A DNA stretch of 64,000 bases from Candidatus Woesebacteria bacterium RIFCSPHIGHO2_02_FULL_42_20 (GTDB lineage: Bacteria > Patescibacteriota > Microgenomatia > UBA8517). Shown in pieces: positions 10,896 through 61,128 of this stretch; positions within the stretch are counted from its first letter, which is position 1; every line of letters begins with the position of its first letter. The position numbers and the translations under genes were made by a program. The notes beneath the pieces are model-generated. The model had not been told where the DNA came from. It saw only the letters and a list, made by a program, of their open reading frames with translations, and searched no databases. The stretch covers positions 44 to 64,043 of the forward strand of contig MGGS01000007.1 of assembly GCA_001792535.1 (NCBI GenBank), given 5' to 3'.

Positions 10896-11035
10896 ACATT
10901 ATCACCTCCTTTATTTAAACTGCCTTTATACAAACCGCTCTCCACTGGCTATTTTGGGAAATAATCCTTGAGAAACCTAAATAAGCTGTAAAAGGAGCTA
11001 ACAAGAAGCAGTATAGCTTATTTTCACCAAAAAAG

Positions 11036-11311
11036 CTACATTGAAGCGGGCTCAAGCATGCCGACGCGGTTGCGCTCGAGGTCCGTAAGCATTACAAACT
11101 TGCCAATACCGGGAATATCCATCGGTTTGCCTAAAATCTTGCCGCCGGCTTTTTTAACCACAGCTATATGCTTTTCCAAATTATCTACCGAAATTATTAA
11201 ATGGGTACTCTTGGAACTTTTGCTTGCGGGATAAAAGCCGCCGTTAATTACGCCGTCTTCTTTTACGATCCCCAAAAGAAAGTAATCGCGTTTAGGTTTG
11301 TAAAACAACAC
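11036..11311 (-). CDS. VOC (glyoxalase/bleomycin-resistance) family protein, single-module / truncated
   Basis: 91 aa. HLIISVDNLEKHIAVVKKAGGKILGKPMDIPGIGKFVMLTDLERNRVGMLEP matches the VOC C-terminal module. An in-frame stop 5 codons upstream of the Met shows the first beta-alpha-beta-beta-beta module is absent. Confidence 0.5.
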   Translation of the reverse strand: MLFYKPKRDYFLLGIVKEDGVINGGFYPASKSSKSTHLIISVDNLEKHIAVVKKAGGKILGKPMDIPGIGKFVMLTDLERNRVGMLEPASM

Positions 11312-11868: not shown

Positions 11869-12603
11869 ATGCTTAAAAAGTTTTTTCCACTGGCGTTTGT
11901 TCTTGCCTTTAACCTCTGGATATGGAAAATTTTTGCTTTTAACGCTGCTGTCGGCTTGGTAGTCATCGGGGCATCGGTTTCTCTCTGGCTTGAGTTTCAG
12001 GAAAACACTAAATTCCACTTTTACGCCACGGCCGGATTATTTTTTATTCTTCTACTTTTTCAGTGGAAAACAAGCTCTGTTACCTCCCTCACTTATTTAA
12101 CAGAACATGAAAAACTCGGGCAGCAAGTGAGAATGCGAGGCTACCCTCCGCTTGCTTTTAATATTGCCGGTAAAACCGTTTGGTTGCCGGCAGCTAATTG
12201 GCTAGAGAAGCGAAAGGAAACACTCATCTTCTATAAAATTCAGACCAATATTTCAGAAATCATTGACCCAAACCTTTTTTTCTTCGCAAATCACCCCAGA
12301 GAAAGGGTTGGTGTAGTCGAATTTGAAAAGTTTCCCTACATATTCCTGCCAGCGTTCTTGTTAGGTCTGGCTTCGATACAAAAAAAACAGGTCAAAGACC
12401 TGTTTTTGGGCTTTTTACCAATAGCACTGATTGCCTTAATCGGCAACAGTAATCCAGCCGGGCCTTTTGCCTTTTTTCCAGTTTTTGCCGTCCTGGTAAG
12501 CATCGGCCTTGCGCCGTTATTTCTAAAGAAAAAACTGCTCATTGCTTGTGCAATTGTTTTTGTACCAGTCTTTATCCAAGTTGTTTCTTATGCAAAGTAT
12601 TAA
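11869..12603 (+). CDS. Polytopic membrane protein, hypothetical (co-oriented with and overlapping the downstream glycosyltransferase)
   Basis: 244 aa with ~7 hydrophobic segments and no recognisable motif. A 10-bp palindrome lies just upstream. Confidence 0.45.
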   Translation: MLKKFFPLAFVLAFNLWIWKIFAFNAAVGLVVIGASVSLWLEFQENTKFHFYATAGLFFILLLFQWKTSSVTSLTYLTEHEKLGQQVRMRGYPPLAFNIAGKTVWLPAANWLEKRKETLIFYKIQTNISEIIDPNLFFFANHPRERVGVVEFEKFPYIFLPAFLLGLASIQKKQVKDLFLGFLPIALIALIGNSNPAGPFAFFPVFAVLVSIGLAPLFLKKKLLIACAIVFVPVFIQVVSYAKY

Positions 12604-45136: not shown

Positions 45137-46525
45137 ATGAAACTTGACAACGAGCGTGTTTGGAAAGATGTATTGGAAAGCGTACAAGTAAACGTCTCTC
45201 CGGCAATTTACAAAACTTGGTTCACCCAAACCAAGCTTACCAAACTCGAAAAAGTTGAGGGGGGCGTGATAGCAGCCGAAGTAGGCTGTGCAACAAACTA
45301 TGTAAAAGATTTTATCGAAAACAGATATTTCGGAATAATCCAAGACTCTCTCAAAAAAATAACAGAATCAAGTTGCAGTTTGGTCTTTGCGGTCAAGCAA
45401 TTTCCCTCCATCAGTAGATTGGAGCCAACCGGCGAATCCGCACCCCTTTTTAATCCCCAAGCCGCTTCCGTACAGATAAACCAAATGCTCCAGCGCTCGC
45501 GCATCCGCCCTGGTTTTACCTTTGAAAATTATGCGGTATCCGGCAGCAACCAAATGGCTTATGCAGCCGCAGAAGCTGTATCTAAAAACCCTGGTAACGC
45601 TTATAATCCGCTGTTTATTTATGGAGGTGTTGGGGTGGGAAAGACTCATCTTATGGTAGCTGTAGGACATAAAATATTAAGCGATAATCCTGTCTCTCAT
45701 AAAACACTTTTTGCTACAGGTGAAGAATTTACCAATGATATTGTAGAAGGTATACGTAATAAAACCACTCCCAGTGTCCGTGACAAGTATCGCAAACTGG
45801 GTTGCCTTTTAATCGATGATGTTCAGTTCATTGCAGGAAAGGATACTGTACAAGAAGAGTTTTTTCATACGTTTAATGCGGTTACTTCGGCGGGTGGGCA
45901 GGTCATCTTAACGTCGGACAGGCCACCCTCTGAAATAGCCAGGCTAGAGGAAAGATTAAGAAGCCGCTTTGAAGCAGGACTCATTGTAGACATTGCCAAC
46001 CCCGACTTTGAGCTGCGCTGTGCAATAACTCAAATCAAAGCGAGGGAGCGAGGATTGGACCTAGCAATGGATCTAGTCCAAACTATCGCCGGTAACATTA
46101 TAGCAGCTAGAGAAATACAAGGCTTTATAGTTCGCCTGGCCAGTGAAGTGTCGGTAAACAATGCCGAACTGTCAATCGAGTTAATTGAAAAACTCTTAAA
46201 TAAAAGTACTTTGGATAACGGGAATGTCACCATAAAATATACTCCCGAAGATATGATCTCGGCTGTTTCAAAATACTTTTCCATAGGTAAAAGGGTATTA
46301 CTTGGAACGTCCAGGGCAAGACCTGTCGCCATGCCCAGACAAATATTAATGTATTTACTTCGTCGTGACCTTAAACTTCCTCTTGAGGAAGTAGGAAGGG
46401 TAATTGGCCGTGATCACACAACAGTTATGCACGCTGTTAATAAAATAACAAATCTAGCTTCATCCGATGTGCATATCAGTGAGGATTTGATGGGGATAAA
46501 AAAAACGCTTTCTGGAAAACTCTAA
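45137..46525 (+). CDS. dnaA: Chromosomal replication initiator protein DnaA
   Basis: Walker A GGVGVGKTHLMVAVGH, Walker B LLIDDVQFIAGK, sensor TSDRPPSEI. Domain IV DNA-binding helix VIGRDHTTVMHAVNKI. Confidence 0.95.
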   Translation: MKLDNERVWKDVLESVQVNVSPAIYKTWFTQTKLTKLEKVEGGVIAAEVGCATNYVKDFIENRYFGIIQDSLKKITESSCSLVFAVKQFPSISRLEPTGESAPLFNPQAASVQINQMLQRSRIRPGFTFENYAVSGSNQMAYAAAEAVSKNPGNAYNPLFIYGGVGVGKTHLMVAVGHKILSDNPVSHKTLFATGEEFTNDIVEGIRNKTTPSVRDKYRKLGCLLIDDVQFIAGKDTVQEEFFHTFNAVTSAGGQVILTSDRPPSEIARLEERLRSRFEAGLIVDIANPDFELRCAITQIKARERGLDLAMDLVQTIAGNIIAAREIQGFIVRLASEVSVNNAELSIELIEKLLNKSTLDNGNVTIKYTPEDMISAVSKYFSIGKRVLLGTSRARPVAMPRQILMYLLRRDLKLPLEEVGRVIGRDHTTVMHAVNKITNLASSDVHISEDLMGIKKTLSGKL

Positions 46526-46527
46526 AA

Positions 46528-46668
46528 TGATATCCACTTATCCACAAAAATGGTTAATTTATCAACAATACTATCCACAATTCGGTAAGTTCAGTGTAAA
46601 CAATTCATTTCAAGTTCTCTGGAAATCGGCAATCCACATATCCACACTGCCTACTACTACAACTACTA
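46528..46668. promoter_or_regulatory. oriC core between dnaA and dnaN: five DnaA boxes plus a DnaA-trio array (3'-GAT-5' repeats) plus a downstream AT-rich stretch
   Basis: Boxes: aTATCCACt 46528-36, TTATCCACA 46537-45 (perfect), cTATCCACA 46570-78, caATCCACA 46630-38, aTATCCACA 46638-46. GC spacer ctgc, then cta cta cta caa cta cta at 46651-46668 (complement 3'-GAT-5' x5). An AT-rich stretch then runs to the dnaN start. Confidence 0.75.
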
Positions 46669-46710
46669 ATTGAAAGAGAAATACTACACTGATAGACTAA
46701 TACACTAGAA

Positions 46711-47817
46711 ATGAAAGTCGAAGTACTTCAAGAGAAACTGTCGAAAGCTCTGAATATATCCTCTCGGTTTATTGCCAATAGGGCACAGTTACCAATTCTT
46801 GCCAATGTGATGCTTGAAGCCACTAAAACAAAACTAACAGTGTTTGCGACCAATCTTGAAATGTCTTCTGTTGTTAGTATTGGAGCTCAAGTAAGTGTGC
46901 CAGGGAAAATTACCGTGCCCAGCCGGATATTATTTGACATTGTGGCGAATTTGTCTTCCGGAAAAGTGTTACTGGAAGCCCAGAGGGAACAATTGAAAAT
47001 GGAAGCAGGAAGTTTCAAAGGTAACGTAATGGGCATAAATGCTCTAGACTTTCCCAATTTACCTACCAGCCTTGGTAAATCAGCCTTTAAAATGCCCCAG
47101 ATTGAACTGATTAAATCGCTTACAAAGACCTTGTTTTGTGTGTCCGGTGACGAAGCCAGGCCGATTCTAACCGGTGTCTTGTTTGTTTTTAGTACAAATG
47201 GGTTGACTCTGGTTGCCACAGACGGTTTTAGATTGACCCTAACAAAGATTCCGGTAAAAACTGCAATAAAGGACATGAAAGTTGTTCTCCCCAAGGGGAT
47301 ATTAATAGAAATAGCCAAACAGCTTAAGTCGGAGCCAATTGGCGTGGAATTTAATCAAGAGAGTAATCAAGCCTTATTTGGCTTTGACGATATGGTGTTG
47401 TCTTCAAGGATAATTGAGGGGGAATTTCCTGACTATGAAAAAATAATTCCGAAAACTTCCAAGGTCACTCTGGCAGTGGACAAACAGGAGCTGTTGCAGA
47501 CGATCAAGCTTTCGAGTATTTTTGCGCGTGAGTCGTCAAATGTGATTAAAATGACAATCAACAAAGAGGGGATAACCATTTCTTCTGAAAGCGAAAAGAC
47601 AGGTACACAGTCATCGCAAGTGGATGCTAAAATTGAAGGCTTGGAAGAAAGTTTGCAGGTGGCTTACAATTTCAGATTTATTGAAGAGTTGCTTAATGTG
47701 ATTGAAGGCGATCTACTTAAAATTGAGCTTACGGACGGATCTTCACCGGGGGTTTTTAAGGACCCCAAAGATCCTGATTTTCTTCACTTGATCATGCCTG
47801 TCAAGGTTCAGGGCTGA
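46711..47817 (+). CDS. dnaN: DNA polymerase III beta sliding clamp DnaN
   Basis: MKVEVLQEKLSKALNISSRFIANRAQLPILANVMLEA... typical DnaN N-terminus. 368 aa three-domain length. Confidence 0.9.
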   Translation: MKVEVLQEKLSKALNISSRFIANRAQLPILANVMLEATKTKLTVFATNLEMSSVVSIGAQVSVPGKITVPSRILFDIVANLSSGKVLLEAQREQLKMEAGSFKGNVMGINALDFPNLPTSLGKSAFKMPQIELIKSLTKTLFCVSGDEARPILTGVLFVFSTNGLTLVATDGFRLTLTKIPVKTAIKDMKVVLPKGILIEIAKQLKSEPIGVEFNQESNQALFGFDDMVLSSRIIEGEFPDYEKIIPKTSKVTLAVDKQELLQTIKLSSIFARESSNVIKMTINKEGITISSESEKTGTQSSQVDAKIEGLEESLQVAYNFRFIEELLNVIEGDLLKIELTDGSSPGVFKDPKDPDFLHLIMPVKVQG

Positions 47818-48828: not shown

Positions 48829-50145
48829 TTAGGGAACATAACCGCATAAACCAACACCAGCAGAGTCGACACAACCTCTGAATGCTGACTCTGAGCTGAT
48901 CCCTTGTGGTCTGTATATATTTGGTTCCCACATTCTCAAACCGCCAAAATCATAGTGGATGTGTGCTCCTCTCGCTCCACCACCGGTTGCTCCACTGATC
49001 CCTATAGGATCACCAAGTTTAATCACTCCGTTTTGTGCAGTTACTACTTCAAGATGGGCATAGGTTGACCAGAATCTGACACCATTGCAGATTGAGGATA
49101 TTCTGACATAATTTCCGTAGCCCGCTCCTTCCCAGCCAACAGATGCTACACCCGAATGAGTGGCGACGACTTGTAAACCTGCTGGTGGTACGTCTACAGA
49201 TTCAGAAGGGTAATGTTGAGGACCAGGGCCCTGGCTAATTCTTAAACCCTGTCTTACTGGCCACGGTCCAGGACATTCATCAGGCGGATTTCCAATTCTT
49301 ACAGTTGCAGTACCCGACGCAGTGCTTCTGTTTGTACTGGTTCCCACCGGCGCATCTGCTGAAACAGTAAAAACATCAACAACTAGCGTGTCAGTATAAT
49401 CAGTAGGTGGCAGGGTAAAGGTCATTGTGTATGTAAAGGTAAAAGTGGTGCCGGCTGGTATGGCATCTGGTGGGTCCGGTATTGAGGCACTAGGACAGCC
49501 GGGGGGAGTCCCCCTGTTATTGTCCCAAATTACACTACATTCGTTGTTATAAGTTATGTTAGTTAGAGCCCCCTGTTTGGCTGTAATTTGAATAGTGTAT
49601 TGAACAGGATAGGGAAGTTGGTCATTGGTCAAAACCCTTGGTTCTGCGGTTTTAATAACGCGGATATAGGGTGACTCAACGTTTCCAGGAGCCTGCAAAA
49701 CTCCGCCAGTATAGGGAGGGACGATGTAGGCGCCCGAGTTGATGATAAATGAAATCGAAGGAACCAGTACAATAAGAGCGAGAATGGCAATCGCAACAGT
49801 ACCCAGTATAGCAAGGGGTATTGCCAGAAAAGCGCCGATAATTGCTAAAAAAGGGGCAAGAATGGCTGCAGCAATATGCTCTTTTTTCATCTTGCCGACA
49901 AGTTTTTCAACAGCCGCTTGTATGGCGGCTGCGGCTAAGGCGAGTCCTGCAGTTGCTGCTGCGGAAGCGGCGGTTGCGGCTACCTTTGCGGCCTGCGTAC
50001 CCATTTTAACGGCTTTAGCGGCGTTAGCAGCGGCTTTGGAAGCGTTTGAGGCGAGGTTTTTCCCGAGACTTTTTACGCCCTTTCCAGCCGCTTGTCCAGC
50101 CAGATCTCCAGCAGCGCTTTTTTGTTGCTTTTGTTCTTCAGCCAC
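48829..50145 (-). CDS. Membrane-anchored M23 (LytM-type) peptidoglycan endopeptidase with Ala-rich N-terminal region
   Basis: C-terminus GYGNYVRISSICNGVRFWSTYAHLEVVTAQNGVIKLGDPIGISGATGGGARGAHIHYD shows the full M23 signature including HxH. Central TM block AAAILAPFLAIIGAFLAIPLAILGTVAIAILALIVLV. Poly-Ala/Lys N-terminus. Overlaps virB4 by 8 nt. Confidence 0.7.
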   Translation of the reverse strand: MAEEQKQQKSAAGDLAGQAAGKGVKSLGKNLASNASKAAANAAKAVKMGTQAAKVAATAASAAATAGLALAAAAIQAAVEKLVGKMKKEHIAAAILAPFLAIIGAFLAIPLAILGTVAIAILALIVLVPSISFIINSGAYIVPPYTGGVLQAPGNVESPYIRVIKTAEPRVLTNDQLPYPVQYTIQITAKQGALTNITYNNECSVIWDNNRGTPPGCPSASIPDPPDAIPAGTTFTFTYTMTFTLPPTDYTDTLVVDVFTVSADAPVGTSTNRSTASGTATVRIGNPPDECPGPWPVRQGLRISQGPGPQHYPSESVDVPPAGLQVVATHSGVASVGWEGAGYGNYVRISSICNGVRFWSTYAHLEVVTAQNGVIKLGDPIGISGATGGGARGAHIHYDFGGLRMWEPNIYRPQGISSESAFRGCVDSAGVGLCGYVP

Positions 50146-52009
50146 TTTGTCCTCCTCGGTCTAATATTACACCGCCCTTGGCTCTCTGCTGCATCTCAAG
50201 CTTCTCCTGCGGCTTGGTGGTGACCAGTCTATGTTCTTGAGGAGAAGAAACGACTCTAATCGGTGCTCTGTGGGGTCCCGCAAAGAAGATCCCTTCTCCC
50301 ACATCAGCCGACATAAGGAGTTGTTTTTCTCCTTGAGACAGATAAAAAACTTCGGTAATCGAGTCCATAGCTGCAGCTGACTGTTTGAGTAAAAGCTTGA
50401 GCGAGGAATTGGTCAGAATTGCTTTACCCAAGTCGTGATTCAAAAAATCCTCAACGTCTTGGGTGATGGTGGTTAAGCCCATATAGTATTTTCTGGCTCG
50501 CTTCACCATTGACCACATAAAGGTAGCGGAATCCGGATGCCGCATCATCTGCCAAGCCTCATCGACAATCAAAATTCGCTTTTTAAGGTCTTTTTTGACT
50601 CTTGTCCAGACGTAGTCAAGAATGATAAACATGGCAATGGGCCGCAGGATGTCTTGCAGGTCGTTAACAGAAAAGACTGTAAAGGAATTGTCGAGCGAGA
50701 CATTTGTCTGTTTGTCAAACATGCCAACAAAGCTCCCTTTGACATATTTTTCAATTCTGGCAGCCAGGTCCAGTGCCTCGTTTGTTTCCATGCCGATGAG
50801 GGTTTTATAAAGGTCTTCCATCAAGGGTGGCTCTTTGTTTTGCGTTTCCGGATATTGGGTTATGCCTTTGTTGCGGTATGTTAGTACCAGCGCCCGGTCA
50901 AGCAATGCTTCACGAATAGGATCAAGCTCTCCCATGATTACTTTAAAAAGGGAATGCAGCGACAAAATTTTAAGGCCGAGCTGATTCTCACCTTCTTCAC
51001 GAACCTGTGCCAGGTCAAAAGGATTAATCTTGGACTGAGATGAGAACGAAAACGACACGTATTCACCGCCTACAGCGTCGCAAAGTGCCTTATATTCAAA
51101 TTCTGGGTCTAGTATTATAATTTCGGCGCCAAGCATCAAGGAACGCACTGCTTCCAGTTTTACGAAATAACTTTTGCCGGCGCCTGAAGTTGCAAAGACC
51201 GTCATGTTATAGTTTTCGAGAGAAAACCTGTCAAAGATGATAAATGAATCGTTTTCGGGATTAATACCATAAAGGACCCCCCTGTCGCTTGAGAGTTCGG
51301 TTGACGTGAAGGGGAAAGTTGTGGCGAGGCTGGTTGTGTCCATATTGCGTGTGACCGAGATTCTGTCTAAGCCAAGCGGCGATGTCGTCAGAAACCCGTT
51401 TTCTTGATCCAAAGCTGCCGTTCTACCGTTAATTAATAATGCACCAAGAGTGGAAAGAATTTGTTTAGAGACGTCATTTAGCTCGTCGATTGTCGCGGCT
51501 GGTATTGTAATGTAGAACGCAAACTCAAAAAATCGTTCAATTCCTTTGACAAGCTCTTCTTGCAATGCCTTTGCGTCATCAAGTTTTGCTTCGGTTGTTG
51601 CGTGGGCAATTCGGCCCCGCTCAATGTCGGTCTCGATTTCGGCTTCCATTTCCGTAATTTTTCGCCTAAGGTCGTCGAGAATTGTTTTTGCGTCGATAGG
51701 ATAGATATAGAAGGCGATATCCAAGGAACTGTCAAAATTCACGACAGGATCAAGCCAACCCGGGGAAACAAATCTAGGGTAACCCGATACATAAAGAGTT
51801 CTATAGTATTTACCGTTGATTATCAAGTAATCAAACTCTTCTTCAATCGTATTTGGAGAAATTATGTCAATGAGATAACTCTTTTTGGCAAGAAAATTGT
51901 CTACCGGCTTACCCATGGCTGGCTTGTATTGCTGGCTGTTAAGTTCGCCTGTTTGCCCTTTTTGCGCTGTGGTTTGAGCGTTAATTTGGTTTTGCTGGTT
52001 CGGGTTCAT
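50138..52009 (-). CDS. virB4: VirB4/TrbE/CagE-family type IV secretion ATPase (Gram-positive DUF87/AAA_10 type)
   Basis: Walker A FATSGAGKSYFVKLEA, Walker B RILIVDEAWQMM. 623 aa. Operon context with PrgI-like and a cell-wall hydrolase. Confidence 0.8.
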   Translation of the reverse strand: MNPNQQNQINAQTTAQKGQTGELNSQQYKPAMGKPVDNFLAKKSYLIDIISPNTIEEEFDYLIINGKYYRTLYVSGYPRFVSPGWLDPVVNFDSSLDIAFYIYPIDAKTILDDLRRKITEMEAEIETDIERGRIAHATTEAKLDDAKALQEELVKGIERFFEFAFYITIPAATIDELNDVSKQILSTLGALLINGRTAALDQENGFLTTSPLGLDRISVTRNMDTTSLATTFPFTSTELSSDRGVLYGINPENDSFIIFDRFSLENYNMTVFATSGAGKSYFVKLEAVRSLMLGAEIIILDPEFEYKALCDAVGGEYVSFSFSSQSKINPFDLAQVREEGENQLGLKILSLHSLFKVIMGELDPIREALLDRALVLTYRNKGITQYPETQNKEPPLMEDLYKTLIGMETNEALDLAARIEKYVKGSFVGMFDKQTNVSLDNSFTVFSVNDLQDILRPIAMFIILDYVWTRVKKDLKKRILIVDEAWQMMRHPDSATFMWSMVKRARKYYMGLTTITQDVEDFLNHDLGKAILTNSSLKLLLKQSAAAMDSITEVFYLSQGEKQLLMSADVGEGIFFAGPHRAPIRVVSSPQEHRLVTTKPQEKLEMQQRAKGGVILDRGGQSG

Positions 52010-52699: not shown

Positions 52700-53647
52700 T
52701 TATTTTGCTCTCACCGCAATTGGAGGTACCAGCTCCCCTTCAGTTTTGAGTTTGATCGGCTCAAAGTCAAAACCTTCTTTTTCGACTAAGATTTTATAGT
52801 CGCCGTCGGCAAGGGGAGTAATCACCATAAAATGCCCCGCTTTATTGGATTTTAAGGCTCTGACAGGGCGACCTTGGTTATCTTTAATTTCAAGTATCGC
52901 TCCCTCGATTATTTTTTTGTCCTTGTCCATCACTTGGCCGACGATAGTATTGGGCAGCGTAGGCGGGCTTGGCGGGGCCGCATCTGGCGAGAATTGGGCC
53001 TGGGTTCCCTCTATTTGCCCCCTTGCAACAAGCGTTTGGTCGACCGCTTTAGTGGTAGCCTGGCCGGGTGGTGCTGCAGGCGTGCTTTCGGGAACCTTTT
53101 GTTTCTCAACTGCTGTGGGGACGCGGGAGGGAATAGCGCCGCTGATAGTGGGTACCGGCTGGGCAGACACTATTGGGTTGTGATGGAGCAAAAAGAGGTT
53201 TCCGATATTTTGCAAAATCGAGCGCTCTGACCGCTCCAAGTTTAGTTGTAAGTTAACTCTTGGCTCCTGGTTCGGTTGGATGTTTTCTGGACTGGTGGGT
53301 GTTACAGTTGTGACTGTTTTGGTTGGCTCCTGAAAATAAACAGGCTCTTTTTCTGTTTTTTTCCAGATAAACTCTGTCGGTGTATAAATTGCTTTAAAGA
53401 AAATTACAATCCAGGTTTCAAGTGGCCTGTCTTCGATGGTGAAAAAGGCGAAACCCACTCCGAGAAGAACAAACAGAGCAACAACTGGCCATTTGACAAT
53501 TGGTGGAAGTGGCGACGCGTAGGTGAGCAAGCCTAATACAACTCCCATCGCTACTTGGAAAAACTGCTTTAAGGTCATGTCGCCAACCAGCCTGAAGCTG
53601 TAGCTTGAGATTTGCTGCGGTATCGGGTGTTCCTGTTCAATTTCCAT
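52700..53647 (-). CDS. PrgI-family (VirB3-like) T4SS membrane protein fused to a C-terminal carboxypeptidase-regulatory-like beta-sandwich domain
   Basis: HPIPQQISSYSFRLVGDMTLKQFFQVAMGVVLGLLTYASPLPPIVKWPVVALFVLLGVGFAFFTIEDRPLETWIVIFFKAIYTPTEF matches the PrgI pattern (P.dIS.YE.K..G.lTlRQ..., second TM, G.P.E.W). C-terminus EGAILEIKDNQGRPVRALKSNKAGHFMVITPLADGDYKILVEKEGF resembles CarboxypepD_reg. Confidence 0.45.
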   Translation of the reverse strand: MEIEQEHPIPQQISSYSFRLVGDMTLKQFFQVAMGVVLGLLTYASPLPPIVKWPVVALFVLLGVGFAFFTIEDRPLETWIVIFFKAIYTPTEFIWKKTEKEPVYFQEPTKTVTTVTPTSPENIQPNQEPRVNLQLNLERSERSILQNIGNLFLLHHNPIVSAQPVPTISGAIPSRVPTAVEKQKVPESTPAAPPGQATTKAVDQTLVARGQIEGTQAQFSPDAAPPSPPTLPNTIVGQVMDKDKKIIEGAILEIKDNQGRPVRALKSNKAGHFMVITPLADGDYKILVEKEGFDFEPIKLKTEGELVPPIAVRAK

Positions 53648-53742
53648 GTTTCTCCTTCTAATTTACACCGTGAATAAAAGTTTTTCTACAGCTAGCTAAA
53701 AACCCTTGTGTGAATTTGCAGTTGCGGATATACTTTAGTTAT

Positions 53743-54156
53743 ATGGATCAGCAGGAAGTGAAAGCAAAGATTCAACAACTTAATGATGAGGCTTATAAAA
53801 GAGCCAAAGATAACGGCGTAGAATTAGATTTTACAAATGAAAGTGTAACTACAGTTGAAGCGATTTTACTCGAAATGTTTGAGGAAGCTCAGGGCTTGGA
53901 CTTAACCGAGCAAGACTATGAACGCATGGCCGAGGTTTGGGGGGCTTATTTGGGCGAGTCTTTAATCCGCAACCTCGGTAAGGGTTATTGGGACTTCGAC
54001 CAGGAAAGAAAAGCTTACGTTGTCCGTTTGGACGATTTATCTGTTTATTTTCCGACGGAAGTGTACCAGGTATTAAAAAGTGGGCTCGTTGAAAATGTGA
54101 TTGACCTTTATATTGACGTTTATAACCAACATTCTCCGGTTCCGATCCAACTTTAA
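53743..54156 (+). CDS. Hypothetical acidic protein P1 (~138 aa)
   Basis: Start at MDQQEV (the ORF-track GTG start at 53710 is also possible). No recognised motif. First gene of the plus-strand block inserted in the T4SS-like cluster. Confidence 0.4.
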   Translation: MDQQEVKAKIQQLNDEAYKRAKDNGVELDFTNESVTTVEAILLEMFEEAQGLDLTEQDYERMAEVWGAYLGESLIRNLGKGYWDFDQERKAYVVRLDDLSVYFPTEVYQVLKSGLVENVIDLYIDVYNQHSPVPIQL

Positions 54157-54286
54157 CCATTGATCTTCAGATTTTAGTAGTCTACTATCTTTGATTAGAG
54201 GTTGTGTTTAAGGAATGGGGTGCAAATCCCCAGCTGTGCCGCAACCGTAGAGCCGGAAAACTAGCAACCCTCTGGGCAGAAGGCCT

Positions 54287-55291
54287 TTGGATCCCGAGCA
54301 GGATATGAGTGAAAGACAAGCACTAGACATGTGGGCTTATGCTCGCCCAAATTCGGAAATTGACGAAGCTGGTCTTGGGTATTCATTAACTTCACTCTTT
54401 TTGGAAGCAGGAACAGAGGCGCCTACCTATTACAGAATTAGACTAACTCCCGAAGGAAGAGTTGTCGACGATTTTTCGGATGGAAGAGTAGACGTTCGTG
54501 AGCAAGTTGTTATGGAGGACGAACTTAGCCGTAAGGAAAGTTCTACGACGCTTGCTCGGATAAAGGTTATGCTTCAAAAAAGGGTCGGGACATTGTGTGT
54601 TTGGGTGAGCCCGCCAGGAGGGCCGTATGGCTATGAGGAAGGAAAAATAGACGTCGGCTATGTTACCGAAGAAGGCGGTGTTTTAGTCCATTGGGGTTAT
54701 GGGATAAAGACGCGTTTTGACAAACAGACGCATTTATTAATAGCGTCTAGAATAGGAGAGTTTGCTTTGACGTCATGGCCCTTAAATTCTCCCGAGGACC
54801 TTCGCGACAAACTTTTTGAAATTCAAACAGATGATCCGCTGGCATTGCTTCACGAAATTATACCGATGCCCGAAGCGCTGGACTCTATCGAAAACGGTGA
54901 AGCCAGGAGACTTAGAGAAATGATGTTTCAGAAAGCACGGCACGTTGTGAGGCATGTCAAACCGCTTTTAACTTCGGCAGCGACAAGGTGGGATTACATG
55001 CAGGCCGGTGCCCTGGCCGAGAGAATGATGGTGCAGGAAACGGGGATTGAGATATCCGATGGCCCATGCGGTTTGCTGAATTCAAGCTTGGTTGAGAATA
55101 GAAGCGGTACACAATTTGTTGTCGGTTTTGCCCAAATAGACTTTCGTGGAAAAGTTACTGATGTTTTTTCCGGGTCGGGAAATAGGGAAGGTAAATATGT
55201 CAAAAGCTGCGGCAAGTGCGGCAAATCTATAAATGCAGTTATTTCCAAAGGCTACAAATGCTCCTGCGGCGGAGTGTACGAAGGCTGCTAG
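54287..55291 (+). CDS. Hypothetical protein P2 (334 aa) with C-terminal Cys4-type zinc-ribbon (CGKCGKS...CSCGG)
   Basis: Clean ORF, GC-richer by eye. Ends ...KSCGKCGKSINAVISKGYKCSCGGVYEGC*. No enzymatic motif recognised. Confidence 0.5.
   Translation: MDPEQDMSERQALDMWAYARPNSEIDEAGLGYSLTSLFLEAGTEAPTYYRIRLTPEGRVVDDFSDGRVDVREQVVMEDELSRKESSTTLARIKVMLQKRVGTLCVWVSPPGGPYGYEEGKIDVGYVTEEGGVLVHWGYGIKTRFDKQTHLLIASRIGEFALTSWPLNSPEDLRDKLFEIQTDDPLALLHEIIPMPEALDSIENGEARRLREMMFQKARHVVRHVKPLLTSAATRWDYMQAGALAERMMVQETGIEISDGPCGLLNSSLVENRSGTQFVVGFAQIDFRGKVTDVFSGSGNREGKYVKSCGKCGKSINAVISKGYKCSCGGVYEGC
55245..55291 (+). repeat. Direct repeat copy 1 (3' end of P2) flanking the DUF433-DUF5615/HicB-HicA cassette; copy 2 at 56230-56268
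   Basis: ccaaag...tcctgYggcggagtgtacgaaggctgYtRg. The 23-bp core 55265-55287 versus 56243-56265 differs at 1 position. Both copies read CGGVYEGC followed by a stop. Confidence 0.8.
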
Positions 55292-55312
55292 GCCATGCTA
55301 TAATTCAGGTAT

Positions 55313-55564
55313 ATGGCAAGAAAGATTGTGGTTAATCCTAAAGTTTGTTTTGGCAAGCCCTATTTCGACGGTACTAGAATCCCTGTCGATATGGTACTCG
55401 AGCTTCTTGCAACCGGCATAGAGATTAAAGATATTGTGAAAGACTATTATCCTCGTCTCACGACCAACGATGTTAAAGAGGCTGTTAAATATGCTTCTCA
55501 GGTTGTCAAAAATGAAGAGGTGGTCGTAAACATTCCTCGTATAGGAAAACTGGCTGCGATTTGA
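55313..55564 (+). CDS. DUF433-family antitoxin-like protein
   Basis: CFGKPYFDGTRIPVDMVLELLATGIEIKDIVKDYYPRLTTNDVKEAVKYA matches the DUF433 consensus (cgGkP.i.GTRipV..vl..la.G.s.eeil..YP.Lt.edv.aal.ya). Confidence 0.75.
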   Translation: MARKIVVNPKVCFGKPYFDGTRIPVDMVLELLATGIEIKDIVKDYYPRLTTNDVKEAVKYASQVVKNEEVVVNIPRIGKLAAI

Positions 55565-55571
55565 AAAACAA

Positions 55572-56051
55572 ATGCGCTTGCTTGCAGATGAAAACGTTTA
55601 TTTTGTAATTACTAACCGTCTAAGTGGTCTGGGTTTTTCGGTAACGAGTGTTTATAAAGAAGGTCTTATTTCAGAAAGTGACTTAAATATTTTACTTTTC
55701 GCGCGAAAGAAGAATTTGGTTATTTTAACTCAAGACAAAGATTTTACAGTATTGCATAACGCATATTCCCACAAAGGAATAGTTTTACTGAGGAAAGTTG
55801 ATAAGTCATTAGGAGCTGTTATGGCAAATCTCATTAAGTTTTTGGAAGACGATAAAGGTAAAAGTGTCAAAGACAAGATTATTTCTGCTTTGGGTGTTGC
55901 CGATGATGGTGATACGGTGGAGGAAGCGTTAAGTAATGTCACGGGGGCGATTAAAACTTATGTTGATAGTTTGACTGAGGATAAACTTCCTGTTCCTCAC
56001 GATGAAACTCAAAAAGATATTATTACAACTACCCAGGTTGCCCCAAATTAA
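55572..56051 (+). CDS. DUF5615 (PIN-like, Mut7-C-type) toxin-like domain continuing in frame into a HicB/UPF0150-like antitoxin domain
   Basis: N-terminus MRLLADENVYFVITNRLSGLGFSVTSVYKEGLISESDLNILLFARKKNLVILTQDKDF is the DUF5615 pattern. From MANLIKF the frame continues as DKGKSVKDKIISALGVADDGDTVEEALSNVTGAIKTYVDSLTEDKLPVPHDE, resembling HicB N-domain (PGC.tQGdTlEEAl.n.keAl.l.le.l.edg..iPeP). No stop between the two parts. Confidence 0.55.
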   Translation: MRLLADENVYFVITNRLSGLGFSVTSVYKEGLISESDLNILLFARKKNLVILTQDKDFTVLHNAYSHKGIVLLRKVDKSLGAVMANLIKFLEDDKGKSVKDKIISALGVADDGDTVEEALSNVTGAIKTYVDSLTEDKLPVPHDETQKDIITTTQVAPN

Positions 56052-56226
56052 ACCCCGCCAAATCCAAAAAGTTTTACTTAAGTCAGGATTTGTTCCAAGA
56101 CCAGGAAAAGGGAGTCATACAGTGGTTCCCGTACACAATCGGCCGGTCAGAATAGGCACTTTGTATTCAATTCTTGGCCAAGCAGGGATTAAAGTCGGCG
56201 ATTTCCTGAAACTTCTGAAGAAGTAA
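56002..56226 (+). CDS. hicA: HicA-family mRNA interferase toxin
   Basis: IQKVLLKSGFVPRPGKGSHTVVPVHNRPVRIGTLYSILGQAGI matches HicA (l.k.Gf...rqkGSH..f.h.....tvP.H....l..gtl.sIlkqaGl). Start could be the ATG at 56002 or the TTG at 56038. Confidence 0.75.
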   Translation: MKLKKILLQLPRLPQIKPRQIQKVLLKSGFVPRPGKGSHTVVPVHNRPVRIGTLYSILGQAGIKVGDFLKLLKK

Positions 56227-56229
56227 TTG

Positions 56230-56268
56230 CCAAAGTTTTCCTGTGGCGGAGTGTACGAAGGCTGTTGA
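56230..56268 (+). repeat. Direct repeat copy 2 (relic of the P2 3' end) immediately upstream of mntA
   Basis: See 55245-55291. Confidence 0.8.
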
Positions 56269-56287
56269 AAATGGTACCATTAGGGCA

Positions 56288-56599
56288 ATGAAAGTAAATA
56301 ATAAGCAGGAAATATTGGAATTACTAGCCGGGAATAAATCTACCTTTTCAGGTTATGGAATAAAAAGGATTGGTTTATTCGGTTCGTTTGCGCGTGGTGA
56401 GCAACACGAAGGAAGTGATATAGACCTATTAGTAGAATTTGATAAAAAGAAAAAAAACTTTAAGAACTTTATTAAGTCAGCAGAATATGCGGAAAGTCTC
56501 CTGGGAAGAAAAGTTGAATTTTTAACCCCCGAATCGGTTAGTCCGTATATTTTTCCCTATATAGAGAAAGAAGTAAATTATGTCCAAATCTCCGGTTGA
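56288..56599 (+). CDS. mntA: MntA-type nucleotidyltransferase antitoxin (second copy in window)
   Basis: IGLFGSFARGEQHEGSDIDLLVEF. The longest-ORF N-extension (MAECTKAV...) is the repeat relic, so the start is taken at MKVNNKQ. Confidence 0.8.
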   Translation: MKVNNKQEILELLAGNKSTFSGYGIKRIGLFGSFARGEQHEGSDIDLLVEFDKKKKNFKNFIKSAEYAESLLGRKVEFLTPESVSPYIFPYIEKEVNYVQISG

Positions 56600-56924
56600 A
56601 TACCTGAAACACATTTCAGATGAAATTGATTACTTGGCTGAAACTACGGAAAGTCTGAGTGAACCTGATTTTGCAAAAAACCTTACTTTACAGAAAGCCT
56701 TTGTTAGAAGTTTGGAAATTATTGGTGAGGCAGTTAAGAACTTGCCTGAAGATTTCAAAGTTAAATATTCGCAGGTAAATTGGAAGTCTTATGCAGGTTT
56801 ACGGGACAGGTTAATCCATCATTATTTTGGTGTTGACTACGGGATTGTCTGGGATGTGGTCAAAAACGAAGCACCGGCATTAAAAGAAAAAATTAGTAAA
56901 ATTATTGAAGTACTTCGTAAATAA
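56580..56924 (+). CDS. hepT: HepT-type toxin (DUF86; Rx4HxY), second copy
   Basis: GLRDRLIHHYFGVD. 114 aa. Overlaps mntA by 20 nt. Confidence 0.8.
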   Translation: MSKSPVEYLKHISDEIDYLAETTESLSEPDFAKNLTLQKAFVRSLEIIGEAVKNLPEDFKVKYSQVNWKSYAGLRDRLIHHYFGVDYGIVWDVVKNEAPALKEKISKIIEVLRK

Positions 56925-56977
56925 TAAATCGTATTTTGTGTTGTTTGTTTCTCCCCCGGCTGATATAATTTGGGTGT

Positions 56978-59269
56978 ATGGTAGATGTAGATGACGAAGC
57001 ATTGCTACGACAGCCTGAGAATGCAGAAAATGGTTCTGAAGAACAAAGGCGTCTTTTTATGTTCAGGCCAGAACTCTACACAGTAAATGGTGCTGATTTA
57101 ATTGAGAATGTGAAATCGGCCGAGATAGGCGAAAATGGCGACATTAGTGAATTAAGTGCTGCTGTAGACGAGGCTCTTGCTTATCAGGAAGGATTGGTGT
57201 TGGGATCAAGGCTTTCTTTGCTTGAAATAGACCATCCCTTGGCAGATGAGCTAATTCAGGCCGTTGATACTTTATATAAAATTACATACGATCCTCAAAA
57301 ACCGGCTCCCGATGAAATAGAAAAGATTAGGAAAGCAGACAAAAGAGGCATTTTAGACTATCAAGTTGTCCAAGACTTTGCTTTTGGGTTGGCATCGGCC
57401 AGAAAACAAGCGGAAGCTGATAATCCTACCGATACCAATCGGAGGGAGGAGCAATTTAGAGAAGCGCATAAAGTTATGGAAGACTCGTCCAGAACACTCG
57501 CCGAACTGTTAAGTGACGAGAGCCGTGCCACTCTAAATCTTTACAAGGACATGTTCACCAACGCGAGGACAATGATTGAGAGACCTGATCCCAGAGGCAA
57601 CTTGATGGATGCCATTGAACACGCTTTGTCAGAGCCTGTGCGGAGGGCAAAAGAGTATGCTCGTGATAGGAAAGGCTGGGCCGAGAAAGAAAAGAGGAAA
57701 AGAGTAAAACAATACACAAGGCAGAATATGGCCGACAGAAATCCAAGGACAAGAATGTCTGAAAAGGAGATACCTGCCCTGGTAGATCTAGAAATAGAGG
57801 AAGAGGAAGAGAAGTTGCAGCGGTATGCTGAAGCCGCTCCTCACTTAGTCCGAAAATTGGCTCATGTGACAGCAAGAAGACATAACGATGAAATGTTTAT
57901 ACACCGTACGCAAGTTGGTGGAGATAAAGACAATGAGCCTAAAACTAATGAATATATGTCTGGCAGAATTCCTTTAATTGACTCTGAAGACTTCATTGCT
58001 GAGTACAGATACTCCGGCGAGTGGGGCAAAAAGGTGGACACTGTCATGAAAGAAATGCTTTTTGTGGCTCTTGGGAAGTATGAAACAAACGACCCTAAAA
58101 CTAGCATAAGCAGAGATGCTTATATAGACGGATTTACTACGGATGCTTTTAAAGGGTGGCTTACACCGATGTTACGGAAAGCCGGTGGAGACATGAGTGT
58201 GGTCTGGGCAGCTTGGCGGAATTTATTAACAAGTGAGCTCTTACTACCGTTTACCATGAAGGTAGTAGATACAGAGGTCAAAGATAAAGATGGTGGAGTT
58301 CGTAGAGAGAAGTCTTATAAGTTTGCCGATCCCCCGATTGCTACAGATTTAGGATCGCATTTGTATTTTTTTGAGGAGCACAGGAGAGACGAAAGGGGAA
58401 TAGATCCGGATGGTATAAGGCATCCAAGTAGGCCTTATTCCCGAGTTTCTCATTTTGGACATCCTTTTAACATGGGCAAGATATCAAGAGGTGAGGATGG
58501 TGCACCAAAGCCGCTTGTAGGCTCTTACTTTGAAGGTGCCAAAGTCAAGAACTGGCCAACTGGTAAGACTGATAATTCTGGACAACCCCTAAAAGGTGAA
58601 ATGCCACTTTATAATATTTGGATGGGGACTTCGGTGAGAAAGATGCAGGAGATTAGAGGGAGAGGTTGGCAAATGAGTGACGAAACGATTTTTGATAAAG
58701 GGGTTAGTCTTGCAGATAAGAAATTTCCCTTTGATGATACTGAAAAGCGCGATCCTAAAGACGCAAACGAGCCCGGTTCGGCTTCTTTTACTGCTTGGTA
58801 TGTTATTATAAGGTCTAGATGCGCCCAGATCAGAAAGATGATTTTAGGGTTTCCGCACGATGTAAAAGACATGGAGGGGACGACATTCCAGGAGGGTTTC
58901 CGAGCATTGGATAAGATGAATATGGTACGCCCCGACCACGAAATAAATCCAGATGACTTAGATCCCAAAGACCCTTCATTGTGGTTTCTGGCAAGTGTCT
59001 TGATATACCTTCACCCTGAAACCGCTGCACAATTGGAAAAAAGAGATTTTATGGTAAAATCTCGTATCGGTAAGCATAGGTTGTATAAATCCATAGCTCC
59101 GCCAATAATAGGTAAGACAGCACCGGTTCCCGCAGCCAGTGGAAGGACAGACGTGGTGAGTATGTCATCGGGTAATATCTACGAGAATTGGCAGACAGTA
59201 GGCTTGATTGGAGGCAACAAGAGAGCTTGGTTGGCCAACAATATCTTGTCGGAAACCCGGTTCACATAG
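56978..59269 (+). CDS. Large hypothetical soluble protein P3 (763 aa), no recognisable domain
   Basis: Uninterrupted ORF, GC-richer by eye. Acidic N-terminus, Lys/Arg-rich segment (KEKRKRVKQYTRQNMADRNPRTR), EEEEE tract, His-containing patch RHPSRPYSRVSHFGHPFNMG. No Walker A, HUH, DDE or RT motifs found. Confidence 0.5.
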   Translation: MVDVDDEALLRQPENAENGSEEQRRLFMFRPELYTVNGADLIENVKSAEIGENGDISELSAAVDEALAYQEGLVLGSRLSLLEIDHPLADELIQAVDTLYKITYDPQKPAPDEIEKIRKADKRGILDYQVVQDFAFGLASARKQAEADNPTDTNRREEQFREAHKVMEDSSRTLAELLSDESRATLNLYKDMFTNARTMIERPDPRGNLMDAIEHALSEPVRRAKEYARDRKGWAEKEKRKRVKQYTRQNMADRNPRTRMSEKEIPALVDLEIEEEEEKLQRYAEAAPHLVRKLAHVTARRHNDEMFIHRTQVGGDKDNEPKTNEYMSGRIPLIDSEDFIAEYRYSGEWGKKVDTVMKEMLFVALGKYETNDPKTSISRDAYIDGFTTDAFKGWLTPMLRKAGGDMSVVWAAWRNLLTSELLLPFTMKVVDTEVKDKDGGVRREKSYKFADPPIATDLGSHLYFFEEHRRDERGIDPDGIRHPSRPYSRVSHFGHPFNMGKISRGEDGAPKPLVGSYFEGAKVKNWPTGKTDNSGQPLKGEMPLYNIWMGTSVRKMQEIRGRGWQMSDETIFDKGVSLADKKFPFDDTEKRDPKDANEPGSASFTAWYVIIRSRCAQIRKMILGFPHDVKDMEGTTFQEGFRALDKMNMVRPDHEINPDDLDPKDPSLWFLASVLIYLHPETAAQLEKRDFMVKSRIGKHRLYKSIAPPIIGKTAPVPAASGRTDVVSMSSGNIYENWQTVGLIGGNKRAWLANNILSETRFT

Positions 59270-59277
59270 TTTTCTTA

Positions 59278-61128
59278 TTAAGCTACATCCTCTTTTTTAG
59301 TTACTGGTTTGGAAGCGGTTGTAGAACCTTTTCCTTTCTGGCCAAATTTAGGCATTTGGAACGGTGCCAACGGCGTTCCGGCTTCTTTTTCTTCACCTGG
59401 CACTTCCCTTCGCCACCACTGCGCTGCCGTTCCGGCTTTTGTACCAAACTTACCCACTCCTCCAACTACGGACCCTAGAACAGCTGACCCCTTGAGTCTT
59501 GTGCTGAATCTGGTTTTTGCTCCAGAGATACGTGTTCTTGCTGGTTCTGTGGCTCTTGCTACATAACCCCCTGCCCTTGTTCTTGCAAATCTTCCGCCAA
59601 CCCAACCGGCGGCTCCGCCGACAACAGCGGAAGTTGCGCTAAGGCCTGGAATAAGCCCTTTCAAAGTTCCGCCCGAAGTTCCAAATCTCATAAATCTACC
59701 CATGGCTTCACCGCCAAAACCTTTACCAACAACTGCACCAAGAGCAGCGGCGCCCAAGAGCTCTCCCCCATACTGGCCGCGAATGCCCAGTATAAAGTTT
59801 TTAGCCGCTTGGGAAAGGCTGGGCGTTGCTATCATTGTTGCCAGCCCTACCAAAAAGCCTATCGTAGCTGTGTCGCCAAAGCTAAACCCCGGGAGAATAC
59901 CCGTCCCTCCGACACCAGCCAACGAAAGTATATAGAAAGGATTGATCATTGGCCAGGTTTGAAGCACGCCGTAATACCCGTCCGGTGCCATTCCCCAAGC
60001 AAAAACATGGGCAGCAAAAACAAGGAAAGTTGCCATTACAAACACGGACAGGTTTGCGATAACGTGCTTCAGCCAGAAAGTGAAGCCGATCTGTTGGGCA
60101 ATTAATCCGCCCAGAATTATGAACGGGCCCGCAATGATCATAATCAAAAGCGTCGCATAGGCTTTAAGAAGCGTCCAGAAAATCCTGAATATGGTAATGA
60201 ATATTACCAAAAATAGGATTAATGACAGGATAAAATCCATTATATTACATAGAAGTGGAACTCTGGTTATTACACAGGCAATGCCGCCATATAATGTCGA
60301 TCTAATTATAGTGAGCCATGCGTAGGCGATAGTTCCACCGTTGATGTCTTGCAGTCTTGTGAAGGTAAATGAAGCTGCTCCTGTGGGGTCTAGTAAGCCT
60401 GAAGCTCTGGCAATTGAAACAACAATGCCTTGGGTAAGAAAGGCAAGATCGACCAGAAGCCCGGCGATTGCATAAGAAAATGTTATTAAAATAAGAACCA
60501 TTGCAATTTTAGGGATAGCTGACTGAATAGTAATCACAACTCTGGGCGCTATTTGAACCCGAAACATGATCAAGAATGCCATGATAATGATTACAAAGAT
60601 TAGGAATGTGTATGCAACGTTTCTCGTAGCCAACCACAAGGCTCTTGCAGGGACTAATGCGGAACTATAACCAAATCCTTGAGCGTTGGCCTCAGGGATT
60701 AGATGCAGGTCGGCAGCTGTGCTGGCAATATATTCGAGCCCGGACGCTGGTTTTTGATTGAGCAGAAGATCAGCGTATGATGCCAGCGAAAGGAGCGCAC
60801 CGGGGCTCTTATTACTGCTAATGGCCCCCGACCCTGGAACAAACATATCAGCGCACTCTGGTATTGTTTCAAAAATGCCATCTGAGACGTCAAGGCAGCG
60901 GTAAACGTCCATCGGTATAAACCAGAAGATAATGCTCATTATTATCCATCTGGTCTGTGCATAGGTGTACCTTTCACCGTATACTTCAGCGTCAGGAGGC
61001 TCTGCCACCCGATCGGCAAACTCGCCCATACTAGGTTCCCACCAAGTCTGTGCGATGGCTGTTGTGGGGAGGAACAGAGTATGAAAAGCAAAGGCTGCCA
61101 GAAGGACGATAAAGACCGATTTTTTCAT
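59278..61128 (-). CDS. Polytopic membrane protein with signal peptide, extracytoplasmic N-domain, ~6-7 TM helices and Gly-rich C-tail; VirB6/TrbL-like T4SS channel candidate
   Basis: 616 aa. Signal peptide MKKSVFIVLLAAFAFHTLFLPTTAIAQ. Multiple long hydrophobic helices. C-terminal GxGG-rich low-complexity region. Placement next to pilin-like genes and T4SS operon supports a VirB6-type role, with no strict motif. Confidence 0.4.
   Translation of the reverse strand: MKKSVFIVLLAAFAFHTLFLPTTAIAQTWWEPSMGEFADRVAEPPDAEVYGERYTYAQTRWIIMSIIFWFIPMDVYRCLDVSDGIFETIPECADMFVPGSGAISSNKSPGALLSLASYADLLLNQKPASGLEYIASTAADLHLIPEANAQGFGYSSALVPARALWLATRNVAYTFLIFVIIIMAFLIMFRVQIAPRVVITIQSAIPKIAMVLILITFSYAIAGLLVDLAFLTQGIVVSIARASGLLDPTGAASFTFTRLQDINGGTIAYAWLTIIRSTLYGGIACVITRVPLLCNIMDFILSLILFLVIFITIFRIFWTLLKAYATLLIMIIAGPFIILGGLIAQQIGFTFWLKHVIANLSVFVMATFLVFAAHVFAWGMAPDGYYGVLQTWPMINPFYILSLAGVGGTGILPGFSFGDTATIGFLVGLATMIATPSLSQAAKNFILGIRGQYGGELLGAAALGAVVGKGFGGEAMGRFMRFGTSGGTLKGLIPGLSATSAVVGGAAGWVGGRFARTRAGGYVARATEPARTRISGAKTRFSTRLKGSAVLGSVVGGVGKFGTKAGTAAQWWRREVPGEEKEAGTPLAPFQMPKFGQKGKGSTTASKPVTKKEDVA

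Follow-up and report, generated by a model that had tools for sequence, protein, structure and literature searches.

How a block of plus-strand genes comes to lie within a minus-strand locus resembling a type IV secretion system (T4SS), and whether it has any part in secretion, is the question raised by a 64,000-nucleotide stretch of DNA from Candidatus Woesebacteria bacterium RIFCSPHIGHO2_02_FULL_42_20 (assembly GCA_001792535.1, contig MGGS01000007.1, positions 44 to 64,043; hereafter the window), a member of the Microgenomatia within the Patescibacteriota. The block encodes three proteins, here termed P1, P2 and P3, together with several toxin-antitoxin (TA) modules, and a preliminary description of the window, made from the sequence alone, proposed that it interrupts the secretion operon as one novel defence or addiction system or as cargo of the secretion system. 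The open reading frames (ORFs) of P1, P2, P3 and the TA genes were found at the coordinates claimed for them, all on the plus strand and flanked by minus-strand T4SS-like genes (Table 1). The block itself is probably a composite of unrelated units on one strand, namely an ancestral P3, a riboswitch with P2, P1, and stacked TA cassettes. Judged by its synteny, P3 is an ancestral resident gene of the T4SS-like locus, not inserted or mobile cargo.

The T4SS-like locus of Patescibacteria is related to the conjugation machinery of monoderm bacteria (MPF-FATA) and contains neither a coupling protein nor a relaxase [Quinonero-Coronel et al., 2025 (PMC12102498), as far as the accessible part of that article goes; Wang et al., 2023 (PMC10633639)]. 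Loci encoding P3-family proteins were fetched from three sources and annotated against the proteins of the window, and grouping at 80% identity gave 24 lineages, or 25 with the window. The VirB6-like gene is the next gene downstream of the P3-family gene, on the opposite strand and 1–231 bp away, in all 19 informative lineages, while a PrgI/VirB3-like gene lies upstream, also on the opposite strand, in 18 of 20. The distance between PrgI and P3 is 111–163 bp in eight lineages, 132 bp being the modal value. L017 and L041/42 are the two lineages without this upstream gene; in them the VirB4 half of the locus lies elsewhere and P3 is still beside the VirB6-like gene, in L017 beside a pilin array as well. 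Family members were located at T4SS-like loci in 33 of the 34 loci fetched; the remaining one, L031, is a contig of 2.2 kb without any identifiable neighbour of the family gene. It follows from this conserved synteny that the opposite-strand "interruption" is the ancestral architecture of this type of locus, with the PrgI/VirB3-like gene as the ancestral divergent neighbour of P3. Hence to say that the block interrupts the operon is misleading, since an opposite-strand P3 is conserved at the locus in 24 further lineages. The lineage-specific insert proper is the gap between PrgI and P3 (53648–56977), which holds P1, P2 with its riboswitch, and the TA cassettes, and which measures ∼132 bp elsewhere and 3.3 kb in this lineage.

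P3 represents an undescribed family without a structural match. A word-indexed homology search retrieved P3 itself only, as a hypothetical protein of this organism with 100% identity, and an exhaustive HMMER search was needed to uncover the family, which comprises 64 cluster representatives of 550–760 amino acids (aa) with the common motifs AFxQRMxTCE, RMDVVWxAW, HSGxPxSIG, FPW, and NPRxWW. A Pfam domain was found in none of 60 members, and no relatives of P3 were found in plasmid or phage collections. The statement in the preliminary description that P1, P2, and P3 cannot be assigned to any known family was borne out, in that none of the three has a significant match in Pfam, PHROGs, NCBIfam, PADLOC, or PDB sequences, and profile searches with alignments A1 and A6 likewise returned nothing significant. 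An AlphaFold2 model of P3 based on a 60-sequence alignment is confident (pLDDT 88.4, pTM 0.87), and despite this no sequence or fold relative was found in the PDB. According to the model, a disordered and acidic N-terminus would be followed by a small helical module predicted with very high confidence (residues ∼35–80), a lineage-specific insertion (∼85–185), three helices of 45 residues each, an alpha/beta region (∼380–560), and a helical C-terminal part. None of P1, P2, and P3 has a transmembrane (TM) segment, and P3, which also has no signal peptide, is for lack of any hydrophobic segment assigned to the cytoplasm. P3 is the fastest-diverging gene of the locus, with 22–30% identity where VirB4 has 61–71%.

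Coupling proteins (VirD4/TcpA) and relaxases, which usually serve T4SSs as partners in the cytoplasm, resemble P3 in size, in a cytoplasmic or peripheral location, and in being encoded together with secretion genes, but P3 differs from them in having no P-loop NTPase domain, no conserved His/Tyr catalytic motif, and no Pfam or fold match. No P-loop is conserved in alignments of the P3 family and an NTPase match in Pfam was found for none of 60 members; the only Walker-A-like string in P3, APPIIGKT, was rejected because other family members do not conserve it. The reading of P3 as a type IV coupling protein is thereby not supported, as no conserved Walker A/B NTPase domain was found in the family. 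A relaxase was also considered and dropped, there being no Pfam or fold match and no His or Tyr in columns conserved at ≥90% among 60 sequences.

Otherwise the locus follows the published Patescibacteria T4SS, with which it shares VirB4, an M23 hydrolase, VirB2-like pilins, and dnaA-dnaN as neighbour, as well as the lack of a relaxase or coupling protein and, as candidates, TrsD/TraC-like, PrgI/VirB3-like, and polytopic VirB6-like proteins. It differs in P3, since the published repertoire, in the accessible part of the article, names no opposite-strand cytoplasmic protein of 550–760 aa between the VirB3-like and VirB6-like genes (PMC12102498). P3 would be an extra component limited to the Microgenomatia-type locus.

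A different protein is found at this position in a sister species. In Woesebacteria contigs of the RIFCSPLOWO2_01_FULL_39_21 type the order is P1, P2, HicB, HicA, a 642-aa protein in the slot of P3, and the VirB6-like protein. Compared with the window, VirB4 is 90% identical, the TraC-like protein 83%, P1 82%, the PrgI-like protein 69%, the large Cys-rich protein 53%, and the VirB6-like protein and P2 47% each. The 642-aa protein has no match in Pfam or the PDB. The promoter and 5′ junction of its gene resemble those of P3 and, with filters off, a single borderline match, short and collinear, to a member of the P3 family was obtained (E 0.003 in a set of 109 sequences). These comparisons suggest that the slot protein is either extremely fast-evolving or a replacement.

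Going by synteny only, we infer that P3 would act with the secretion machine at its cytoplasmic face, either by assisting the VirB6/VirB4 channel or recruiting substrates to it, or as a dedicated secreted substrate. Several points weigh against such a role. Conserved synteny near the origin of replication (oriC) could persist in tiny, compact genomes without shared function. No gene occupies the position of P3 in the Saccharibacteria locus, the only one tested genetically. Moreover, comparisons of the 642-aa slot protein with P3 were negative in BLAST, with the family HMM, and in hhalign, and a core part of the machine is not expected to be replaceable or so diverged. Whether by fast evolution or by replacement, the state of this slot argues against a rigid structural subunit and keeps alive the idea that P3 is a dedicated translocated effector of the T4SS, delivered into the host bacterium that these epibionts need and with a sequence driven by an arms race with that host. 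Such an effector would be cytoplasmic, without a signal peptide or TM segment, and expressed from its own transcription unit, as P3 appears to be; it would be apt to diverge faster than the rest of the locus, to have a fold without relatives, and to become unrecognisable in a sister species whose VirB4, PrgI-like, and VirB6-like proteins retain the identities given above, and the literature expects protein export because the locus has no relaxase or coupling protein (PMC10633639). We nevertheless regard an effector as possible but rather unlikely, given that strict one-copy synteny throughout the class (19/19 lineages) is rare for effectors, that no secretion signal or enzymatic motif is recognisable in P3, and that the conserved core motifs and length fit a partner of the machine equally well. 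A housekeeping or regulatory protein unrelated to secretion, kept beside the VirB6-like gene because rearrangements near the origin are rare, is improbable. In the split loci L017 and L041/42 it is the VirB6-like gene that P3 accompanies, and not dnaA/dnaN or other genes, family members were found only at T4SS-like loci (33/34 fetched), and divergence faster than that of every neighbour is unexpected for a housekeeping protein, even though many lineages preserve the synteny of dnaA-dnaN with the T4SS locus, P3 is encoded on what is the leading strand right of the GC-skew minimum, and P3 contains no T4SS motif. The link with secretion suggested in the preliminary description is thus retained for P3, through its strict synteny with the VirB6-like gene, and is given up where it concerned mobile cargo.

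The gap between PrgI and P3, on the other hand, differs from lineage to lineage and has repeatedly taken up small genes of a selfish or accessory kind. It holds four nucleotidyltransferase (NTase)/HEPN pairs in L038 (6484–9959), a 23S-IVP protein, MntA/HepT-like genes and two AAA_14-DUF4143 ATPases in L016 (5764–9959), a DOT1-like methyltransferase in L014 and L039, a relative of P2 in L026, and, in either orientation, a Cys-rich RING/zinc-finger-like protein of 117–123 aa in L022 (9525–9878), L024 (9521–9892), L029, and L030. Several TA pairs are also present in the region upstream of P3 in L041 (1–2949). The small gap proteins of other lineages were considered as relatives of P1 or P2 and rejected as unrelated. 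Homologues of P1 occur only in this Woesebacteria lineage and in the sister lineage, where they are 78–100% identical, and none was found in other P3 loci. P1 is labeled as "DUF3806-containing" in one source, and in Pfam it has a sub-threshold match to DUF6278 (E 0.0015).

The second protein of the insert, P2, is preceded by a predicted aptamer of the cobalamin class, and the same is true of each of the four independent P2 genes (4/4). The aptamers of L018 and L026, in the same position as in the window, score 37.3 and 41 bits, both above the gathering score, and that of L007 matches RF01482 with 43.4 bits against a gathering score of 50. No such aptamer was found in six P3 loci that have no P2 (65.7 kb). 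When the four sequences were aligned on helices derived from Rfam, 98.7% of the pair cells were paired and five pairs had changed on both sides, while slid controls gave 29–51%. The 3′ end of the aptamer in the window is 34 nt before the P2 start codon (ATG 54305). The expression platform lies between them, and 13 nt of it, ATCCCGAGCAGGA (54291–54303), are invariant in all four lineages; this segment would have a role in regulating P2. By the covariance models and the covariation, the aptamer is identified as a putative cobalamin riboswitch that controls P2. By analogy with other B12 riboswitches, binding of cobalamin would mask the conserved AGGA ribosome-binding hairpin and so shut P2 off. 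The element shares with clan CL00101 (RF01689, RF01482, RF00174) the core aptamer, helices with compensatory changes, and a place in the 5′-leader before the ribosome-binding site. It differs from the clan in that the window copy falls 1.9 bits under threshold, in that the controlled family is not known to be B12-related, and in that the conserved 13-nt platform is unmatched to a described kissing-loop partner; inspection by eye found no convincing complementarity for the platform loop. A literature search for B12 riboswitches in Patescibacteria or the Candidate Phyla Radiation (CPR) found nothing relevant.

P2 belongs, as far as can be judged from sequence, to a new family of 274–334 aa with predicted riboswitch control, whose relatives P0003, P0004, and the L026 copy are 47, 32, and 27% identical to it, respectively. 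It has no match in Pfam or the PDB, and its C-terminus is a zinc ribbon that hardly varies, ...CGxCG...KGYKCSCGGVYEGC, followed directly by the stop codon. The relative in L007 is away from any T4SS and comes after a second cobalamin riboswitch (RF00174, 8648–8765) and an operon for a DUF4430 protein and a DUF6580 membrane protein. In B12 binders of the transcobalamin type, DUF4430 forms the C-terminal domain (PMC4350170). P2 itself probably takes part in the handling of B12 in the cytoplasm. The P2 relative of L007 is closely followed by a group I intron (10994–11237, 119 bits) beside serine recombinase genes.

The remainder of the insert consists of the TA cassettes. The modules named in the preliminary description were recognised by Pfam in the case of DUF433, DUF5615, HicA, the MntA-type protein, and HepT, but HicB and HicA are not an intact pair. 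DUF433 and DUF5615, intact as a putative pair, are encoded 7 nt apart and both of their Pfam matches exceed the gathering score. Residues 108–145 of the DUF5615 ORF match HicB_lk, and only the C-terminal ∼50 aa of HicB are left, this tail sharing 38% identity over 45 aa with HicB of the sister species, which is intact. HicA is missing ∼12 internal residues relative to its profile (44 residues span 56 profile positions) and to the full 78-aa HicA of L018, with which it shares 36% identity. At the same junction the sister species has an intact HicBA and neither DUF433 nor MntA modules. MntA/HepT, in turn, looks intact by its sequence: both Pfam matches are above the gathering score, the MntA translation shows the GSxxxG...DxD motif (GSX10DXD), with the true start probably at ATG 56276 (MKVNNKQ...), and the Rx4HxY motif of HepT reads RDRLIHHY. 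A 26-nt direct repeat, the two copies of which agree at 25 of 26 positions and continue with looser similarity into the downstream promoter region, brackets a 977-bp segment that contains DUF433/DUF5615-HicB′/HicA′. The cassettes thus appear to have been exchanged or stacked behind P2 by recombination between variants of the locus. In this process, TA cassettes piling up behind P2 would have left its 3′ end duplicated, and DUF433/DUF5615 would have overwritten the 5′ half of hicB. The cassettes share with known TA modules of type II/VII (MntA/HepT, HicAB, DUF433/DUF5615) their domains, small size, adjacency or overlap, and, for MntA/HepT, the catalytic motifs. They are unlike them in that HicAB is decayed and partly overwritten and in that the cassettes are stacked behind one gene with a duplicated junction. 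The TA pairs would be selfish addiction modules and not partners of P1, P2, or P3.

Promoter-like elements lie directly before P1, the DUF433 gene, and P3 (Table 1), and most other loci of the P3 family have an equivalent −10 element 5–9 nt upstream of the start. The same design, a −10-like element that ends 5–10 nt before the start and leaves no room for a Shine-Dalgarno sequence, is seen in ∼12 of the 68 ORFs of the window. It is therefore a habit of the genome, and for P3 it shows a transcription unit of its own and nothing more special. Its frequency suggests that leaderless mRNAs are common in this genome. A scan for sigma-70 and terminator consensus sequences gave no more sites than in shuffles and missed the extended −10 elements.

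The order of genes on the VirB4 side of the locus is PrgI/VirB3-like, TraC/TrsD-like, VirB4, and hydrolase, and on the other side VirB6-like, the large Cys-rich surface protein, and the VirB2-like pilin array, the last being recognised by matches to PF18895 (T4SS_pilin) on at least eight tandem small genes just past the end of the window. VirB4 is 61–90% identical across loci. The PrgI/VirB3-like and TrsD/TraC-like proteins have weak or faint Pfam matches (PF12666, PF26593) in the window protein or in orthologues, and their position and topology fit. VirB6 of Microgenomatia is described as too diverged for detection by HMMs (PMC12102498). The window contains dnaA and dnaN (45137–47817) and a cumulative GC-skew minimum at ∼45–46 kb, which together indicate that it covers the origin region, and its 22-kb gene arrangement is found again in many metagenome contigs. 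P3 and the VirB6-like gene overlap in some lineages, and a gap of 1–38 bp separates them in others. In the window their stop codons (59269–59278) are 8 nt apart with no terminator between them, and with convergent stops so closely spaced transcription must enter the partner gene. Two metagenome-assembled genomes (L015 and L017) with the CPR-type locus carry the record label "uncultured Gammaproteobacteria", probably a mislabel. In the NCBI assembly of L002 (GCA_001793255.1) several locus genes are called short or are uncalled, with P2 uncalled and the PrgI-like protein given as 76 aa, a possible sign of frameshifts or faulty assembly in the record.

Table 1. Features of the block and of the flanking T4SS-like genes. 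Positions are those of the window, except for the last row, which refers to L018.
Feature	Position	Strand	Remarks
VirB4-type ATPase	50138–52009	−	623 aa; precomputed Pfam DUF87, AAA_10, P-loop_TraG
PrgI/VirB3-like membrane protein	52700–53647	−	First gene of the VirB4 half; two hydrophobic segments
TATACT element	53729–53734	+	Ends 8 nt before P1 ATG
P1	53743–54156	+	137 aa, acidic, cytoplasmic
Predicted cobalamin riboswitch aptamer, AdoCbl-II class	54199–54270	+	RF01689; in the 130-nt P1-P2 spacer
Expression-platform segment ATCCCGAGCAGGAT	54291–54304	+	P2 Shine-Dalgarno AGGA in a predicted short hairpin
P2	54305–55291	+	328 aa, cytoplasmic; longest ORF from TTG 54287
26-nt direct repeat, left copy	55262–55287	+	3′ end of P2
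−10-like element TGCTATAAT	within 55300–55312	+	Ends 8 nt before DUF433 ATG
DUF433 protein, putative antitoxin	55313–55564	+	PF04255, E 1.2e-20
DUF5615 (PIN-like) putative toxin with HicB C-terminal remnant	55572–56051	+	PF18480, E 1.3e-18, residues 1–93
HicA remnant	56002–56226	+	PF07927, E 6e-8; overlaps the DUF5615 ORF
26-nt direct repeat, right copy	56239–56264	+	Remnant of P2 3′ end before MntA
MntA-type nucleotidyltransferase antitoxin	56243–56599	+	PF01909, E 5e-15; PADLOC PDC-S09, E 1e-31
HepT-type HEPN RNase toxin	56580–56924	+	PF01934, E 3e-26; overlaps MntA by 20 nt
Extended −10 promoter-like element TGATATAAT	56961–56969	+	Ends 8 nt before P3 ATG; leaderless-type design
P3	56978–59269	+	763 aa, cytoplasmic, new family; core syntenic gene of the Microgenomatia T4SS-like locus
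VirB6-like polytopic membrane protein	59278–61128	−	Hydrophobic N-terminus and at least 6 hydrophobic segments; no Pfam match
642-aa slot protein of the sister species (L018; also L020, L021)	12143–14071		Occupies the P3 slot

With its parts described, the block can be set against the proposal that P1-P2-(MntA-HepT)-P3 and the other TA pairs form one defence or addiction system or an inserted cargo island, an idea that drew on their tight packing on one strand and on a TA density that recalls defence islands. The parts do not travel together, however. Among the 24 other P3 lineages P1 occurs in none and a relative of P2 in one, with the contents of the gap variable or absent, and P3 is ancestral to the locus and has no plasmid or phage relatives. 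Control is also separate, with promoter-like elements for P1, for the DUF433 module, and for P3, and the riboswitch for P2. In a search with PADLOC (PADLOC-DB v2) only MntA matched, and this match, to the candidate single-gene model PDC-S09, is the one hit that would suit a defence system, P1, P2, and P3 having none. The block had been thought richer in G+C than its surroundings, which is not the case: its G+C content is 0.4245, compared with 0.4239 for the window, 0.440 for the left T4SS flank, and 0.468 for the right flank, with the lowest values of the block in the TA genes (∼0.36), and codon usage, a comparison named in the preliminary description, gives distances that are ordinary for genes of such sizes. 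No evidence for an anti-phage role of the block was found. We therefore give a single system next to no credence. Tightly packed TA pairs remain a correct description, and the same gap gathers TA pairs in other lineages, but the defence island read into them is not supported.

Seen as a unit of its own within the composite block, P2 allows for two readings. B12 riboswitches commonly repress B12-independent isozymes, and P2 could accordingly be a B12-independent substitute enzyme (cf. metE, nrdD) that is switched off once B12 makes the B12-dependent enzyme usable; its Cys-rich C-terminal zinc ribbon may resemble the zinc-ribbon region of class III ribonucleotide reductases. This we find doubtful, as proteins of 274–334 aa have no Pfam match to such enzymes and the P2 relative in L007 follows a riboswitch-controlled operon that encodes a protein with a transcobalamin-like domain together with a membrane protein, a setting suggestive of uptake or processing. 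A protein of B12 handling under riboswitch control, the reading adopted here, has its own points against it. For RF01689 the window aptamer reaches 34.6 bits, under the gathering score of 36.5 (local E 1e-6, and 2e-4 over the entire window), just low enough for a default scan to have missed it; the covariation comes from four sequences only; and the minimum free energy of the region is no better than that of shuffles (z = +1.0), so that the case for the riboswitch is made by the covariance model and the covariation. The AlphaFold model of P2, from three sequences, is unusable (pLDDT 37), and the B12 role is one of guilt by association. It is conceivable, if on balance unlikely, that P3 and the 642-aa protein together constitute a hyper-variable, structurally new class of cytoplasmic T4SS partners or injected effectors specific to the Microgenomatia that fills the "missing" role of coupling protein or substrate, and that P2 at the same time founds a family of B12-riboswitch-controlled, zinc-ribbon, cobalamin-handling proteins in bacteria unable to make B12.

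Among T4SSs, that of Patescibacteria is the first for which the growth of its bearer was shown to depend on it (PMC10633639), and its locus encodes neither a relaxase nor a coupling protein to account for its cargo and substrate route. P3 provides a concrete candidate for the missing piece, one that is conserved, cytoplasmic, predicted with confidence to have a fold that matches no solved structure, and linked to the VirB6-like gene throughout the class. The putative riboswitch gives a handle on an unannotated family, that of P2, and hints at the management of cobalamin in ultra-small, B12-auxotrophic bacteria. The stacked TA cassettes and their duplicated junction illustrate how selfish modules come to gather in one intergenic gap beside essential genes, and they caution that a high density of TA genes need not signal a defence island.

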